Source of the DNA: a virus
Lineage: Duplodnaviria > Heunggongvirae > Uroviricota > Caudoviricetes
IMG/VR virus record: IMGVR_UViG_3300005531_000248
Location: 64,001-81,155 of that record
Length of the DNA: 17,155 nt
Reading direction: 5' to 3' (one strand)
Numbering within the stretch: the first letter of the stretch is position 1; every line of letters starts with the position of its first letter. The position numbers and the translations under genes are program-made. Shown one piece after another: positions 3,651-6,663 of the stretch. The notes below the pieces were generated by a model. That model was given only the letters and a program-made list of their open reading frames with translations, was not told where the DNA came from and searched no databases.

Positions 3651-3873
3651 GGCTGGCTTGGATTGCCAGCCCTAACCCCCGAAAAGACCGAAGGAATCCC
3701 GGATTCGCGTGAGGCCTCACGCGAATGGCTCAAGTGGACCGCTCCGTAATTGGGTTCAGGTTTTTGGGTGTCAATGAACATTGACAACTCGCCTCAGAGC
3801 GCGCACGCGGGAAGGCTTCTGACCGTTATCGACCGCTGAGAAAAGCGTCGAAAACAAAAACCAATAACAGTCT
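3651..3873 (+). repeat. Composite multi-hairpin intergenic element, copy A (full length)
   Basis: GGCTGGC-TTGGATT-GCCAGCC hairpin 3651-3671; 22-bp palindrome TTCGCGTGAGGCCTCACGCGAA 3704-3725; TGTCAATG-AA-CATTGACA 3769-3786; box1 GAGCGCG 3797-3803; box2 GACCGCTGAGAAAAGCGTC 3831-3849; A-rich tract to ATG 3874. Homologous to 4779-4891 and 6409-6663. Confidence 0.9.
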
Positions 3874-4146
3874 ATGTGGATTAGTCGACTCCTTCATGGA
3901 CTAGGATCCCGTCTCTACAATTTCACTCTCAATGCCTTCGACAGATCCCTTGCATCCTTGGTTCTCGGTGCACCGCCGGACTACACCATCTCGGGCGAAA
4001 TAGGAAAGCATCAAGCAACCAATCCCATCGCAGAAGAAGCCGGAGACGTGCTGGACAAGATCCAGAAGAACCACGTCGAGGACGCCGCGGCCGTGGATGC
4101 TGCCTTAACCGAAACCCGAAAACACACCCCAGGAGGGGGAACGTAA
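3874..4146 (+). CDS. Small phage hypothetical protein (90 aa)
   Basis: Pattern AFDRSLA...G.PDYTISGEIG...LDKIQKNHVE resembles a recurrent small phage family (PDETIS...LD.I..NHC). No SD; the ATG follows the repeat module. Confidence 0.75.
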   Translation: MWISRLLHGLGSRLYNFTLNAFDRSLASLVLGAPPDYTISGEIGKHQATNPIAEEAGDVLDKIQKNHVEDAAAVDAALTETRKHTPGGGT

Positions 4147-4338
4147 ATGCTCGATAAAGTGGCCGACCAGACCGCGAAGGACTTGAACGCCGGTATCGCG
4201 CTTAACATCACCGAACTGTTCGCCGGACTAAACCAAGTGCTCGACCGCCTGGACGGCGCCACGGTCGAATGCAAGGCCACGGTGGAATGCACGTTTACGG
4301 TCCACCTGCGTCCCTGGACCCCAAAGCCGACCGCATGA
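4147..4338 (+). CDS. Hypothetical protein (63 aa)
   Basis: TAA-ATG abutment with the upstream gene and ATGA overlap with the downstream gene. Confidence 0.7.
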   Translation: MLDKVADQTAKDLNAGIALNITELFAGLNQVLDRLDGATVECKATVECTFTVHLRPWTPKPTA

Positions 4339-4775
4339 AACGACTCCTCGCGCTTCTCCTGTTCTCAATCCCCGCGGCCGCCCAGACCTTCTACGGCGCC
4401 GGAATTACGCTCCTGCCCCAGTCTTCGCCCAAGCCCTCGGCATGGTTTGTGGCCGCGACCAACATTTCGAAGACCCAGGATGTCTGGAGTTTCAGCGAGA
4501 CCGACGCCGTACTGGTCAATAAGCGGATCGTGACCAGCGCCCGGACAGGCATTGCAACCGGGCTGCGGAGCTTTGGACCGTGGAAACTATTTGCGCTGGC
4601 AAACGCCGGCGTCGCTACCAATGGGGGAGCAACATCGGGAGCTTATGCGGGCGGCGGTGTTTTAACCGGACCTTTTCCTCACAGTTCTCGCTTAAAGACA
4701 ATTCTTGGAACACGCATTATACGAAGCGGAGTGGGTGGAACAACAGTAACGTACAACATTGGATTTGGATGGTGA
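4335..4775 (+). CDS. Secreted, probable small outer-membrane beta-barrel protein (146 aa)
   Basis: Start reassigned to ATG 4335 (ATGA overlap). Signal peptide MKRLLALLLFSIPAAA-Q, alternating hydrophobic strands, C-terminus YNIGFGW ending in an aromatic residue. Confidence 0.7.
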   Translation: MKRLLALLLFSIPAAAQTFYGAGITLLPQSSPKPSAWFVAATNISKTQDVWSFSETDAVLVNKRIVTSARTGIATGLRSFGPWKLFALANAGVATNGGATSGAYAGGGVLTGPFPHSSRLKTILGTRIIRSGVGGTTVTYNIGFGW

Positions 4776-4778
4776 GAC

Positions 4779-4891
4779 GCTGGCCTGGAGTGCCAGCCCT
4801 AAACCCGGACGACCGGGAGAGTCCCGGATTCGCGTGAGGCCTCACGCGAAGGCCTGAGTGGACCGTTGTAGTCTAAGTTCACCCGTACAGG
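4779..4891 (+). repeat. Composite element, copy B (5' half only)
   Basis: GCTGGC-CTGGAGT-GCCAGC 4779-4797; CCGGGA-GAG-TCCCGG 4813-4827; same 22-bp palindrome 4829-4850; GGCCTGAGTGGACC 4851-4864. Homology ends near CAGG 4888-4891. Confidence 0.9.
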
Positions 4892-5018
4892 AAGCCTCGG
4901 AAGTTCTGGAAGAAAAAACGAAGAAAACGTAACTAGCCCGAGGACATTCTGCTCTAGATCCGAGCACTACATCCTTGCGCGCTTTCACCTGTTCACCCTT
5001 GCTTGTTTTGAGCCTATG

Positions 5019-5046
5019 CAACCTTCAGCCTTTGACCTTGAGCCTT
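5019..5046. repeat. Four tandem heptamers NNNCCTT
   Basis: CAACCTT CAGCCTT TGACCTT GAGCCTT, plus a related GAGCCTA at 5010-5016. Confidence 0.6.
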
Positions 5047-5062
5047 AACGCCATGTTGTTTT

Positions 5063-5138
5063 TGGCGAGATCCAACGGATTCGAACCGCTGACCTCCTGG
5101 TTAATAGCCAGGCGCTCTAACCACTGAGCTAGGGTCTC
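5063..5138 (-). tRNA. tRNA-Asn-like with anticodon ATT (A34 instead of the usual G34)
   Basis: 76-nt cloverleaf on the minus strand: GAGACCC TA GCTC AGTGGTTA GAGC G CCTGG CTATTAA CCAGG AGGTC AGCGG TTCGAAT CCGTT GGATCTC G CCA. Encoded CCA, G73 discriminator, one C5-A68 mismatch. Anticodon at 5105-5103. Confidence 0.92.
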
Positions 5139-5223
5139 TGTATAGTATTCGCTAACGTGCGAACACGAACGCTTCATTTTTGCCAGTTTTTATCTCTGCA
5201 CGTCGAACGATTCCATTGTAGGC

Positions 5224-5457
5224 TTATTCCTGCCGCCGGCGCCGACGGTATTCTTCAGGAGACATTTTACGTAACTCCTCAGCCGGACAATCTGCAACCG
5301 AACTTGCAACAGAGCATTGTTGATTGACATCCGCCGGGTACAGAATCGTCGGTGCAGATTCAGGCCTTATTTCGGCGAACACCAGGCTCGGCTCCTCATC
5401 AGTAATGACGGGGAAGGCGAGCACCCCTGGGGATGTGGACTTATTGCTCGATGACAT
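5224..5457 (-). CDS. Possible small protein ending in an Arg run (MSPEEYRRRRRQE)
   Basis: 77-codon ORF overlapping the stop of the upstream minus-strand gene and filling the gap before the tRNA; no recognisable family. Confidence 0.35.
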   Translation of the reverse strand: MSSSNKSTSPGVLAFPVITDEEPSLVFAEIRPESAPTILYPADVNQQCSVASSVADCPAEELRKMSPEEYRRRRRQE

Positions 5458-5953
5458 CGGTCACGGCATTGACCGTCTCGAGGGTGGAGTCGATCAAGGA
5501 CGGTTCGCGGCGGTAGACGTCAACCTTGGCGTCTCGTAACTTTGGGTCGAAGTAACGCCTGATTTTAACCGTGATGTTGCCGCCCGTCGTATTTTGCATA
5601 AGGCCCTCCCGAAGACTGCGGTCTCCGAGTCCGCTCCACATTTCCAGATCTGCTTTGGCAAGATCCTTCCGCCGATGTATCCATTCCGCAATCGATTTTG
5701 TGACCTGCTTGCCGTCAATTTCGATGGTCACCGGCGTTGAAAGGTTAGTGCGTTGAATAGCTACGCGGAGACGGGCGATCTCATGCAGTGAGTCCTGGTG
5801 CGATTGAATCCACTGAGTGACTTGGTCCTTTTGGTCGGGGTAAACAGGCGTCTCAAAATCCAGGTCCGCACAATAAGTGGCGACTTTCTTCCTCAGATCG
5901 GCGCATTTCTCCTGGAGGTGCTTCAAGGTCTTCATCGCCTCAATGATCTTCAT
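5441..5953 (-). CDS. DIP1984-family-like helical protein (start 5953; alternative 5965)
   Basis: Pattern MKIIEAMKT.KHLQEK...LHEIARLRVAIQRTN...SIAEWIHRRKDL...LIDSTLETVNAVTDV resembles, from memory, the DIP1984 family (MKLAEAL...RINRTN...LD..IQ..NW.T.L); not searched. Confidence 0.65.
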   Translation of the reverse strand: MKIIEAMKTLKHLQEKCADLRKKVATYCADLDFETPVYPDQKDQVTQWIQSHQDSLHEIARLRVAIQRTNLSTPVTIEIDGKQVTKSIAEWIHRRKDLAKADLEMWSGLGDRSLREGLMQNTTGGNITVKIRRYFDPKLRDAKVDVYRREPSLIDSTLETVNAVTDVIEQ

Positions 5954-5964
5954 GACCTTAAGCA

Positions 5965-6046
5965 TCGCGTCAGAGCGCGCACGCCGTCAAGCCCCGCGCC
6001 TTTTATCGACCGCTGAGAAAAGCGTCGAAAACAAAAAACACTTCCC
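5965..6046 (+). repeat. Bipartite pre-start module, copy 2 (3' half of composite element)
   Basis: TCGCGTCAGAGCGCGCACG from 5965; box1 5973-5979; 28-nt spacer; GACCGCTGAGAAAAGCGTC 6008-6026; GAAAACAAAAAAC; ATG 6047. Confidence 0.9.
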
Positions 6047-6409
6047 ATGGACACCCCAGATTTAACCCTCATAGAAAAGCAGCACCTGTTCTGCCAGCTC
6101 GCGGCCAATCTGATCTTGGAAGCGATCGCACTGGGCTACCAGCCGCGGTTCGGAGAAGCCTACCGGACTCCAGAACAAGCCGAGCTGGATGCGCAAAAAG
6201 GAACCGGCATCAAGAACTCGGAGCATTGCAAACGCCTGGCCTTAGATCTTATTCTCGACAAAGACGGCGTATGGCTGACCAATTCGAACGACTACAAACC
6301 TTTAGGCGAATGGTGGAAGCAGCAACATCCGCTGTGCAGGTGGGGCGGAGATTTCCAAAGTAATCCTGATGGAAACCATTTCAGCTTGTTCGATCAGGGG
6401 GTGGCATAG
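6047..6409 (+). CDS. M15-family Zn peptidase (probable endolysin, L-Ala-D-Glu/D,D-peptidase type)
   Basis: GEAYRT...Q..L, SEHCKRLALD (SxH-x6-D), WGGDF and DGNHFSL motifs typical of phage peptidase M15. Confidence 0.9.
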   Translation: MDTPDLTLIEKQHLFCQLAANLILEAIALGYQPRFGEAYRTPEQAELDAQKGTGIKNSEHCKRLALDLILDKDGVWLTNSNDYKPLGEWWKQQHPLCRWGGDFQSNPDGNHFSLFDQGVA

Positions 6410-6663
6410 CTGGCCTGGAGTGCCAGCCCTAACCCCAAAAGCCCGGGGGAATCCCTGATTCGCGTGATGGGGATACCCATAGTTTGCAGCGCGGTGCTGA
6501 TGGGGCGTATCGCCAAGGCCTCACGCGAAGGCCTGAGTGGACCACTCCGTGATTGCATTCAGGTTTTCGGGTGTCAATGAACATTGACAACTCGCTTCAG
6601 ACCGCGCACGCGGGAAAGTCTCTGACCGTTTCCGACCGCTGAGAAAAGCGTCAACAACATAAA
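6409..6663 (+). repeat. Composite element, copy C (full length, with a 49-nt insert in the central palindrome)
   Basis: Starts inside the endolysin stop codon. GCTGGC-CTGGAGT-GCCAGC 6409-6427; TTCGCGTGA 6459-6467, insert 6468-6516, GGCCTCACGCGAA 6517-6529; TGTCAATGAACATTGACA 6572-6589; box1 GACCGCG 6600-6606; box2 6634-6652; ATG 6664. Confidence 0.9.

Follow-up and report, generated by a model that had tools for sequence, protein, structure and literature searches.

Repeated stop-to-start spacers of an acidobacterial prophage may be mosaic gene junctions

We analysed a window of 17,155 nt of phage DNA in which three spacers, A, B and C, follow stop codons. With a probability of about one half, they are not copies of one RNA but mosaic prophage gene junctions that resemble the PeSLs of T4-type phages. 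Of the two readings in the earlier note, one structured cis-acting RNA and a recombinogenic cassette boundary, the second fits better because the modules of the element, among them a 65-nt start-proximal one, recur independently at other gene junctions, because the similarity of the endolysin to its relatives, which lack such a spacer, stops near the gene ends, and because one copy (B together with module D) is split by an inverted tRNA cassette. The hairpins of the element turned out to be real; the analysis provided no support for one folded RNA of 220-255 nt, for self-cleavage or for a ribozyme. The junctions and the features between them are as follows.

3651-3873, + strand: copy A, beginning 12 nt past the stop of ORF 3033-3638 and ending at ATG 3874
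4779-4891, + strand: copy B, 5' part only, beginning 3 nt past the stop of ORF 4269-4775
4892-5964, - strand: inverted tRNA cassette of 1.07 kb between copy B and module D
5063-5138, - strand: tRNA-Asn(ATT) in the inverted cassette
5441-5965, - strand: DUF6847-like ORF in the inverted cassette, its ATG 3 nt from block 1 of module D
5965-6046, + strand: module D, without the 5' hairpins, directly 5' of the endolysin ATG 6047
6409-6663, + strand: copy C, beginning 0 nt after the endolysin stop and ending at ATG 6664

The coordinates of the three copies and their distances of 12, 3 and 0 nt from the preceding stops, all given in the earlier note, were borne out by the sequence and the ORF list, as was its observation that A and C run right up to the next ATG (3874 and 6664). 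The last G of the TAG of the endolysin ORF (6047-6409) is itself the first base of copy C. Sequence comparison gave E = 1e-45 (3' part) and 3e-13 (5' part) for A against C and E = 2e-18 for A against B, and such low values indicate that the likeness is not due to chance. The identity between A and C is 88% over 128 nt; across the three copies it is patchy, with 100% stretches adjoining stretches of about 86%. The order of the parts is fixed: after the stop codon stand a fixed-loop hairpin, a small GC hairpin and a 22-nt palindromic hairpin; next come a weak U-tract stem and, in A and C, an 18-nt palindrome; the 65-nt module then leads to the start codon. The parts belong to six or more repeat families that are independent of one another, and the 49-nt insert in C adds a seventh. 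The copies are not units of one family: in the rest of the prophage, every sub-motif recurs with a copy number of its own. In a coding test, no reading frame was kept across the copies: a 2-nt indel sets A apart from B and C, and C has the 49-nt insert. A GTG-led frame within the palindrome spans 22 codons in A and 7 in B.

The endolysin ceases to resemble its relatives within a few codons of the ends of the gene; in those relatives the genes overlap tightly, without such a spacer. No inverted repeats were found flanking the tRNA cassette. The three genes of 3874-4775 make one candidate cassette; others are the tRNA cassette, the endolysin and the gene 6664-7071, whose product has a signal-peptide-like N-terminus. 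The hairpins and palindromes of the three junctions were located as follows.

3651-3671, + strand: hairpin 1 of copy A, a 7-bp stem GGCTGGC/GCCAGCC with loop TTGGATT, -13.7 kcal/mol, followed by CCTAA
3688-3702, no strand assigned: hairpin 2 of copy A, CCGAAGGAATCCCGG, weak on the + strand (3 pairs)
3704-3725, no strand assigned: 22-nt perfect palindrome of copy A, TTCGCGTGA-GGCC-TCACGCGAA
3733-3765, + strand: weak terminator-like stem of copy A, TGGACC/GGTTCA, then GG and TTTTT, -7.3 kcal/mol
3769-3786, no strand assigned: 18-nt palindrome of copy A, TGTCAATGAACATTGACA, 10 nt 5' of the 65-nt module
4779-4797, + strand: hairpin 1 of copy B, exact motif position
4813-4827, + strand: hairpin 2 of copy B, within its 5' part
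4829-4850, + strand: 22-nt palindrome of copy B, exact motif position
4858-4882, + strand: stem of copy B, GTGGAC/GTTCAC, without a T-tract
6409-6427, + strand: hairpin 1 of copy C, followed by CCTAA
6443-6457, + strand: hairpin 2 of copy C, 3' of hairpin 1 and CCTAA
6459-6467 and 6521-6529, + strand: halves of the split 22-nt palindrome of copy C, with the 49-nt insert 6468-6516 between them
6524-6571, + strand: terminator-like stem of copy C, CCTGAGTG/CATTCAGG, extended by pairing of GAAGG with the T-tract, -23.4 kcal/mol
6572-6589, + strand: 18-nt palindrome of copy C, TGTCAATGAACATTGACA

The loop of hairpin 1 had been given as YTGGART; since copy A reads TTGGATT, we corrected the consensus to YTGGAKT. 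The family as a whole has the loop CTGRRKT and 11 copies with covarying stems: both sides change at 8 of the 9 stem pairs while the loop stays constant, and pairing was observed in 92.8% of cells, compared with 66.7% in shuffles and 22-42% with a slid partner. Eight strict copies lie in the prophage (~95 kb); the remaining 7.24 Mb of the genome contain 13, which are weaker. The hairpins are supported as real structures. Members in the opposite orientation were also found, and the family is present in a related phage (G401).

As with PeSL stem-loops, units A, B, C and a further unit, H, begin 0-12 nt past stop codons, with stems of -9 to -31 kcal/mol. On the minus strand, hairpin 2 of copy A forms a 5-pair stem, including G-T pairs, which is followed by a T-tract. 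The earlier note had allowed a U-tract to one stem only. T-tracts lie at 3760-3764 and 6564-6567, and hairpin 2 of A and C has a T-tract on the opposite strand too. The stem described in the note as having copy-specific partners changes register between copies and shows no covariation. A U-tract follows the stem only in A and C (TTTTT and TTTTC; loops of 12-16 nt), B and H being without one, and a simple terminator scan missed the A and C stems because their loops exceed 8 nt. Past GTTCA, copy B no longer resembles A and C.

The 22-nt palindrome has six copies, including those at 258 kb, 278,184 and 278,723 of the contig that carries the prophage (C73), and four of the six precede a terminator-like hairpin. 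At 278 kb, the palindrome flanks a gene on both sides beside three 11-nt iterons, in a regulatory-looking region. Because it is invariant in A, B, C and H, it gives no covariation signal; the centre in unit H is the asymmetric GACT. With a covariance model of the 5' part, the scores were 91-108 bits for A, B, C and H and 34 bits for a fifth, diverged unit (L060:4289-4438), which is located in a divergent promoter region, not 3' of a stop codon. Two partial copies of the 5' part lie outside the window.

C73 ~258,010-258,110: partial 5'-part copy
C73 ~278,070-278,205: partial 5'-part copy

By analogy with nut/put sites and T7 RNase III sites, the 5' part could be a two-hairpin RNA signal read by a phage factor for antitermination, processing or stabilisation, the repeats being kept for recognition and not for recombination. 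We consider this unlikely; a candidate RNA-binding factor was not found. The constant loop on covarying stems would suit such a signal, and so would its presence in G401, a distant relative; however, the family also has members in the opposite orientation, and the invariant palindrome adds no covariation. Similarly, the hairpin-then-palindrome order is kept in five units, four of which begin 0-12 nt past a stop on the sense strand, but the fifth lies in the divergent promoter region. The terminator-like hairpins after four of the six palindromes, and an insert that extends stems and breaks none, are also consistent with the signal.

It is highly unlikely that dimeric phage regulators timing lysis and accessory genes use the two perfect palindromes, TGTCAATGAACATTGACA and that of 22 nt, as double-stranded DNA operators, and that the hairpin potential is only incidental. 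Their symmetry, the GGCC centre included, and the position of the 22-nt palindrome around the gene near the iterons would fit such sites, but the centre in H is not symmetric, and the 49-nt split in C would ruin a dimer site, yet keeps the hairpin. TGTCAATGAACATTGACA was observed twice in the window, with 0.01 expected, and only in A and C; it lies 10 nt 5' of the module in just the copies that precede 3874 and 6664. This placement and nearby HTH proteins also point to operators, which would leave hairpin 1, with its varying stem and constant asymmetric loop, unexplained.

The extra 49 nt of C ('ins') occur in five copies, all in the prophage, and every copy is nested in a hairpin apical loop. 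The hosts are of three types, namely the palindrome, a long terminator-like hairpin and the fixed-loop hairpin, and each stem still closes. When folded alone, segment 6459-6529 of C gave one longer coaxial hairpin (-31.3 kcal/mol). The ends of 'ins' are imperfect 12-nt terminal inverted repeats, and no duplication was visible. The fixed-loop host is located in the window.

13754-13825, + strand: fixed-loop hairpin, stem GCGCTGCT/AGCAGCGC, loop CTGGAGT, with an inverted 49-nt 'ins' in the loop; 37 nt to ATG 13862

Besides module D, the window contains the following copies of the 65-nt module.

3789-3873, + strand: module of copy A and leader, with block 1 AGAGCGCGCACG, block 2 GAGAAAAGCGT and an A-rich tail, up to ATG 3874
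6592-6663, + strand: module of copy C, ending at ATG 6664
9260-9333, - strand: module copy 50 nt 5' of the likely RtcB start
13427-13502, + strand: module copy within the last codons of ORF 13096-13515
14196-14268, + strand: module copy in the 3' end of ORF 13862-14290, 5' of the exonuclease gene at 14287
17073-17150, + strand: module copy in the 3' end of ORF 16232-17155+

Block 2 of module D is 100% identical to that of copy A over 35 nt. In total, 21 modules were found, all at 216.6-295.5 kb of C73 and none elsewhere in the 7.3-Mb genome; two related uncultivated phages also carry the module. A co-oriented start codon is targeted by 18 of the 21, and the gap between the end of block 2 and this codon measures 10-35 nt in 11 modules and 50-196 nt in 7. 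Inverted modules between co-directional genes account for the other three, and for two of three in a related contig (L069); their block 1 is only 3-6 nt from the downstream ATG, and a simple promoter is therefore not a sufficient explanation. In the early region, many copies are embedded in the 3' end of the preceding ORF, and three different frames run through them. Neither conserved pairing nor a fixed Shine-Dalgarno sequence was found in the module. At 252.9 and 250.1 kb of C73, a 15-bp hairpin with a U-rich tail follows the stop and precedes a module; hairpin and module adjoin at 252.9 kb and are ~50 nt apart at 250.1 kb.

No sigma-70 consensus was found in the module. About 14 of the 21 copies contain GCG(A/C)AC, 16-19 nt and CGT(C/T). 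Two phage ORFs matched Sigma70_r2 and a third matched Sigma70_r4_2, and G401, which has seven modules, encodes homologues of both Sigma70_r2 proteins. ECF promoters typically have AAC at -35 and CGT at -10 with spacers of 14-17 nt (Gaballa et al. 2017, PMC5758882), and the boxes of the module partly resemble these; the phage encodes small sigma factors with regions 2 and 4. However, late-region modules carry CAC in place of AAC, conservation is lower in the CGT box than in the blocks on either side, and inverted copies exist. Furthermore, the most invariant parts (AGAGCGCG.ACG and AGCGT) fall outside the expected -35 to -10 frame. Conservation of the ECF-like spacing is likewise partial.

The repeat families are confined to an ~80-kb prophage on C73, one contig of the 7.3-Mb acidobacterial genome. 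The repeats gave no significant match in 400 genomes of the host family, and neither a homologue of the 5' part nor a close relative of the prophage was found in any collection searched. The earlier note knew no family for the element, and this stands: cmscan of the whole window against Rfam (E up to 1) returned only the tRNA and a chance Plastid-ycf2 match opposite it. As far as these sequence searches reach, the repeat families are private to the phage lineage, with no Rfam match.

Selfish or neutral repeats of a BIME, BOX or MITE-like kind might also have piled up in tolerated places, namely gene junctions and hairpin loops, without any regulatory role. This is improbable. The modules have a strong bias (18/21) towards downstream starts, even though they occur in both orientations and are read through in three frames. 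The imperfect terminal repeats of 'ins' in three unrelated hairpin hosts and the patchy identity of A, B and C are compatible with mobility, and insertion sequences targeting REP palindromes are known (PMC1525189). Neither the composite nor the 65-nt module, however, has target-site duplications or terminal repeats, and the module and the hairpin family are kept in phages that share little other DNA, which argues for selection. Some transposase families are unlikely to be involved; a serine recombinase was noted in passing.

BOX-type elements are mosaic interspersed repeats of bacterial chromosomes and, like the junctions, combine intergenic palindromic units and short motifs. REP/BIME elements are also mosaics of this kind (PMC2817692, PMC3333891), and the use of REP palindromes as targets of mobile DNA (PMC1525189) recalls 'ins' in hairpin apices. 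REP/BIME were rejected: they occur in hundreds of copies over the host chromosome and go with RAYT transposases (PMC2817692, PMC3333891), and all copies here are at 216-296 kb of C73, absent from the other 7.2 Mb and from the 400 family genomes. A MITE was also rejected, the composite and the module being without terminal inverted repeats or target-site duplication.

Judged by analogy, A, B and C come closest to the junction cassettes of terminator and promoter in T4-type phages. PeSLs (promoter-early stem-loops) are composite motifs of promoter and stem-loop that start from the upstream stop codon; their terminator and promoter activities have been measured, and they were described as sites of cassette shuffling (PMC2839356, PMC4122927). 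They number about 50 per genome and have near-consensus sigma-70 promoters and one G/C stem-loop (Arbiol et al. 2010, PMC2839356; Comeau et al. 2014, PMC4122927). The junctions share with them a repeated composite intergenic motif from the upstream stop, a stem-loop joined to a putative start signal of the next gene, a position beside accessory genes, and homology that could serve cassette shuffling. They differ in that the start module is 65 nt long, lacks a sigma-70 consensus and has a predicted function, that the hairpin block consists of three to five different hairpins instead of one, and that they belong to a P22-like prophage in an acidobacterium.

As mosaic junctions, the copies might work as follows. 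The hairpin block would form where the upstream gene ends in the late transcript; there it would attenuate or end transcription and protect the message of that gene from 3' exonucleases, and phage factors would probably read the fixed loop and the palindrome. The 65-nt module would start expression of the next gene, most probably as a promoter for one of the phage's own sigma factors (AAC or CAC, 16-19 nt and CGT) with a conserved A-rich leader. As modules recur at many junctions, they could serve as homology patches where gene cassettes can be swapped. A bolder and distinctly unlikely idea is a private code in which hairpins of RNA or single-stranded DNA, consisting of the CUGRRKU loop on interchangeable stems and a palindromic hairpin downstream, are read by phage factors that split transcripts gene by gene, with 'ins' as a loop-targeting miniature element or an expansion segment. 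If true, the phage would have both a cis-regulatory system of a new kind and a new miniature insert that targets structures.

The SAS/ESAS repeats of Cluster K mycobacteriophages are likewise phage-private, asymmetric, aimed at the starts of many unrelated genes, often preceded by an inverted repeat at a variable spacing, and absent from the host genome. SAS, a 13-nt repeat that contains a Shine-Dalgarno core, lies 3-7 nt from the start, and what it does is not yet known (Pope et al. 2011, PMC3203893). The module was not assigned to this class, being 65 nt long and 10-35 nt or more from the start.

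The window mapped to the minus strand of contig C73 (216,625-233,779), which carries a prophage of about 80 kb in an acidobacterial genome (7.34 Mb, 165 contigs). The host was placed in Bryobacteraceae/Terriglobia through the names on relatives of its proteins. The main features of the window are as follows.

3651-3873: copy A of the composite junction
4779-4891: copy B of the composite junction
5063-5138 (-): tRNA-Asn(ATT), ARAGORN call, Rfam tRNA score 66 bits
5965-6046: D, a lone 65-nt module before the endolysin gene
6047-6409: M15 endolysin
6409-6663: copy C of the composite junction
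8052-9515 (-): RtcB ligase
14287-15177: exonuclease

The earlier note had described A, B and C as copies of one multi-hairpin element that begin 12, 3 and 0 nt after a stop codon, with A and C ended directly by the next ATG. Positions and distances were confirmed, apart from a one-base overlap of C with its stop codon. The similarity among the copies was beyond chance (BLAST between copies, E = 1e-45, 3e-13 and 2e-18), and A and C shared 88% identity over 128 nt although the genes flanking them are unrelated. The reading frame is broken across the copies by a 2-nt indel in A relative to B and C and by a 49-nt insert in C; judged from their sequences, the copies are non-coding. Two details were revised: the loop consensus YTGGART became YTGGAKT, and on the opposite strand hairpin 2 of A and C was seen to be followed by a T-tract. 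Furthermore, identity among the copies was patchy, with stretches of 28-29 nt at 100% next to stretches of about 86%, which is the pattern expected from exchange among copies.

The element had been proposed to be either a structured RNA or a cassette boundary, and the results favored the latter. A single structured RNA over the whole element was rejected: the fold z-scores were modest (-3.3 and -3.0), and A and C do not fold alike. The stem that varies from copy to copy lent no support to such a fold either: its register shifts and no covariation was observed. We consider A, B and C to be mosaic junctions, each combining a terminator or stabiliser with a start module, and assign this reading a probability of about 50%. 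The hairpins would end one message, and the 65-nt module would start the next gene, perhaps through phage-encoded sigma factors.

The late region repeats one order of parts, although the hairpins vary from site to site: stop codon, hairpin(s), U-rich tail, 65-nt module and ATG. At two sites of C73, 252.9 and 250.1 kb, a long hairpin lies 3' of a TGA within a conserved GCTGAGAG, and the module follows, immediately at the former site and some 50 nt on at the latter. In A and C, a three-hairpin block occupies the place of the long hairpin. The long hairpins belong to a 15-bp family (ACGGGAGACGRAACC ... GGTTYCTTCTCCCGT) with a U-rich tail and with the TGA of the upstream gene inside the preceding GCTGAGAG. 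Its members, in the sequence stretches L058, L059 and L060, are listed below; two are empty and two contain the 49-nt repeat "ins".

L058:16290-16400 (-): 15-bp hairpin
L058 ~19150-19190 (-): 15-bp hairpin
L059 ~6110-6150 (-): 15-bp hairpin
L060 ~2630-2700 (+): 15-bp hairpin

In copy B, the hairpin block ends past GTTCA at an inverted 1.07-kb cassette that contains a DUF6847-like gene besides the tRNA. The module missing from B is module D, which lies beyond the cassette, immediately 5' of the endolysin gene. The cassette was also considered as an invertible segment for a phage serine recombinase; this was rejected, as inverted repeats were not found at its flanks. ARAGORN names the tRNA tRNA-Asn(ATT) because its anticodon loop is CT-ATT-AA; A at position 34 is unusual for Asn. 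The RtcB ligase gene lies about 3 kb from this tRNA.

The insert in C, "ins", accounts for the extra 49 nt at 6468-6516 and forms a repeat family of its own with five copies, all in the prophage. Every copy sits in a hairpin apex, and the hosts are three unrelated hairpin types.

Copy C: the 22-nt palindrome
C73 250.1 and 276.4 kb: the 15-bp terminator-like hairpin, with a degenerate "ins" at 287.2 kb
Window 13754-13825 (+): a fixed-loop hairpin, with "ins" inverted in the loop

The long 15-bp hairpin occurs without "ins" at 252.9 and 259.9 kb. Host stem and "ins" fold together into one longer coaxial hairpin (-31, -40 and -48 kcal/mol). The ends of "ins" are imperfect 12-nt terminal inverted repeats, and inspection of the prophage copies revealed no target duplication. 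The restriction to apices could reflect targeting of hairpin apices or survival of apical insertions alone. Under either explanation the conserved part is the stems, and the insert provides a natural experiment in which stems are the retained feature. The "ins" pattern had no match in viral contigs, and in 400 genomes of the family it gave only unrelated matches with two mismatches; "ins" may be a new type of miniature insert that targets structure. The hairpin at 13754-13825 has the stem GCGCTGCT/AGCAGCGC and the loop CTGGAGT. An ATG lies 37 nt past it, inside a repeated leader (...TCCGGTCATGAG) that is also found at window 15733-15763 and after several early-region hairpins.

The 5' part of the composite consists of hairpin 1, which has a fixed loop, the small GC hairpin 2 and the 22-nt palindrome. 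A strict scan for hairpin 1 (stem of at least 6 bp, at most one G-T pair, loop CTGRRKT fixed at seven bases) found 8 hairpins in about 95 kb of prophage against 13 shorter ones in the remaining 7.24 Mb. When 11 members were aligned on the loop, both sides varied in 8 of the 9 stem pairs. Paired cells amounted to 92.8%, compared with 66.7% after shuffling and 22-42% with the partner slid, a percentage that is partly circular because the members were picked for forming hairpins; this circularity affects neither the constancy of the loop nor the prophage enrichment.

The 22-nt palindrome recurs at about 258 kb of C73, there with the centre GACT, and at two more sites, near 278.2 and near 278.7 kb, where G-C replaces T-A as the outer pair. 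The copy at about 258 kb (H) has the full 5' part, namely hairpin 1 (two of its pairs compensatory), hairpin 2 and the palindrome, and begins directly after the stop codon of a 70-codon ORF. With a covariance model of the 5' part, as the earlier note had suggested building, A, B, C and H received scores of 91-108 bits. The model also picked up a fifth, divergent unit (L060:4289-4438, 34 bits, E roughly 2e-6), which keeps the order of a CTGGATT-loop hairpin followed by the palindrome. The 18-nt palindrome TGTCAATGAACATTGACA was found in A and C only. Homology of the 5' part to the leaders 3' of the early-region fixed-loop hairpins was rejected on inspection: the 37-nt distance to TGAG is equal, but identity is only about 35%.

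No known family had been recognised for the element, and this stood. Rfam returned the tRNA only, and the 5' part had no homologue in pattern scans of viral, metagenome and genome sequences or in BLAST of the 400 family genomes. Exact hairpin and palindrome patterns had no match among viral contigs, and the covariance model had none in the related phages searched. The matches to the combined pattern (nine metagenome, four genome) were all due to chance, with neither stem nor palindrome, and the six matches to a looser palindrome pattern were unrelated phage palindromes.

The 65-nt module, a start-proximal pair of blocks, was searched for with a profile over the whole genome. This yielded 21 copies at E <1e-4, all within C73 216.6-295.5 kb, and nothing over noise elsewhere. 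Eighteen of them face a co-oriented start codon, 11 at 10-35 nt and seven at 50-196 nt. The late region (227-272 kb) has modules of a CAC flavour, whose block 2 is CTGAGAAAAGCGTCGAAAAC or differs little from it (A, C, D, 249,966, 252,847 and 272,217). CAC is also present in two inverted early-region copies; the AAC flavour belongs to the early regions.

About 14 of the 21 copies contain GCG(A/C)AC and CGT separated by 16-19 nt. This layout resembles that of ECF promoters, which have a -35 AAC, a -10 CGT and spacers of 14-17 nt (PMC5758882). Two prophage proteins of 193 and 161 residues match Sigma70_r2 and a third matches Sigma70_r4_2 (sigma-factor loci L060:717-2264 (-), with the sigma gene at 717-1199, L060:9297-9875 (-) and L060:5248-5817 (-)). 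Next to the 161-residue protein are encoded a serine recombinase of 192 residues and an HTH_8 protein of the Fis type. G401 (IMGVR_UViG_3300031715_000001), a contig of a related uncultivated phage, has seven modules, four fixed-loop hairpins and homologues of both Sigma70_r2 proteins, and shares only a few short stretches of DNA with the prophage. A second such contig, L069, has three modules. A search for a T7-type RNA polymerase gave no match, but the control genomes likewise had none.

Several observations speak against the module being a simple promoter. Conservation is lower in the CGT box than in the outer blocks, many modules of the early regions overlap the final codons of the ORF before them, in three different frames, and inverted modules occur between co-directional genes, three in this prophage and two in L069, with block 1 only 3-6 nt off the downstream ATG. 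Among inverted copies at L069:4981-5043 (-), L069:10931-10992 (-) and L061:1659-1726 (+), L061 being a further sequence stretch, this distance is 3-11 nt. Module D stands in the same relation to the DUF6847-like gene (window 5965). No conserved pairing was found in the module interior. A hairpin in block 2 or pairing between the blocks was rejected on inspection, as the AGCGT 3' half is invariant while its partners vary uncompensated. A promoter plus leader is a candidate reading of the module, with the odds slightly against it.

Relatives of the flanking genes were also searched. Those of the endolysin (72% amino-acid identity) lie in overlapping gene runs without the spacer, and similarity is limited to window 6062-6403, the ORF that module D and copy C flank. 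For the 201-residue protein encoded upstream of A (3033-3638 (+)), most homologues are in host chromosomal contexts; in one phage contig the following gene lies 6 nt past it, without the element. The composite was absent from those contigs with available DNA that were reached through relatives of the endolysin (up to 79% identity) and of the 201-residue protein, and none of the relatives searched was close enough to reveal gain or loss at a repeat. The homologues of the 201-residue protein in acidobacterial chromosomal contexts are many (65-79% identity), and one at 79% appears to lie elsewhere in the same genome (contig C162). The gene at 3033-3638 may be cargo of host origin. The ORF at 4335-4775 (+) encodes an N-terminus resembling a signal peptide (MKRLLALLLFSIPAAAQ), and its last residues are ...GFGW. 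Neither Pfam nor PHROG gave a match, and the product may be an outer-membrane beta-barrel, a type of accessory gene in prophages.

The nearest described system is the PeSL (promoter-early stem-loop) of T4-type phages, a repeated stem-loop terminator plus early promoter that extends from the upstream stop codon; PeSLs cluster beside accessory genes and mediate cassette shuffling (PMC2839356, PMC4122927). The anatomy agrees in outline. However, the present junctions have no sigma-70 consensus, they use several hairpin families with sequence-specific features, and the phage type differs. Accordingly, we classed them as putatively PeSL-like in working, a new variant rather than true PeSLs. The junctions also recall the SAS/ESAS of Cluster K mycobacteriophages (PMC3203893) and REP/BIME mosaics, whose palindromes are targets of insertions (PMC2817692, PMC1525189); the distance to the start that defines the former and the host-wide distribution that defines the latter are both lacking. 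The fixed-loop hairpin family, the kept hairpin-then-palindrome order and the apex-only 49-nt insert remain as a strange residue. If the mosaic reading is true, the gene junctions of a temperate phage from a little-studied soil phylum are assembled from a small reusable kit, and the PeSL idea of regulatory cassettes that drive gene shuffling would extend past T4-type lytic phages to a prophage and to non-sigma-70 promoters. Recognising such mosaics also avoids false calls of a novel ribozyme or riboswitch.

A regulatory-looking region was additionally observed at L060 ~4290-4965. There, a 128-codon ORF is flanked on both sides by the palindrome GTCGCGTGAGGCCTCACGCGAC, and the region further holds a canonical terminator, two hairpins (one of 17 bp, the other with a CTGGATT loop) and three direct repeats of 11 nt (GGGTGGAGGAT-like).
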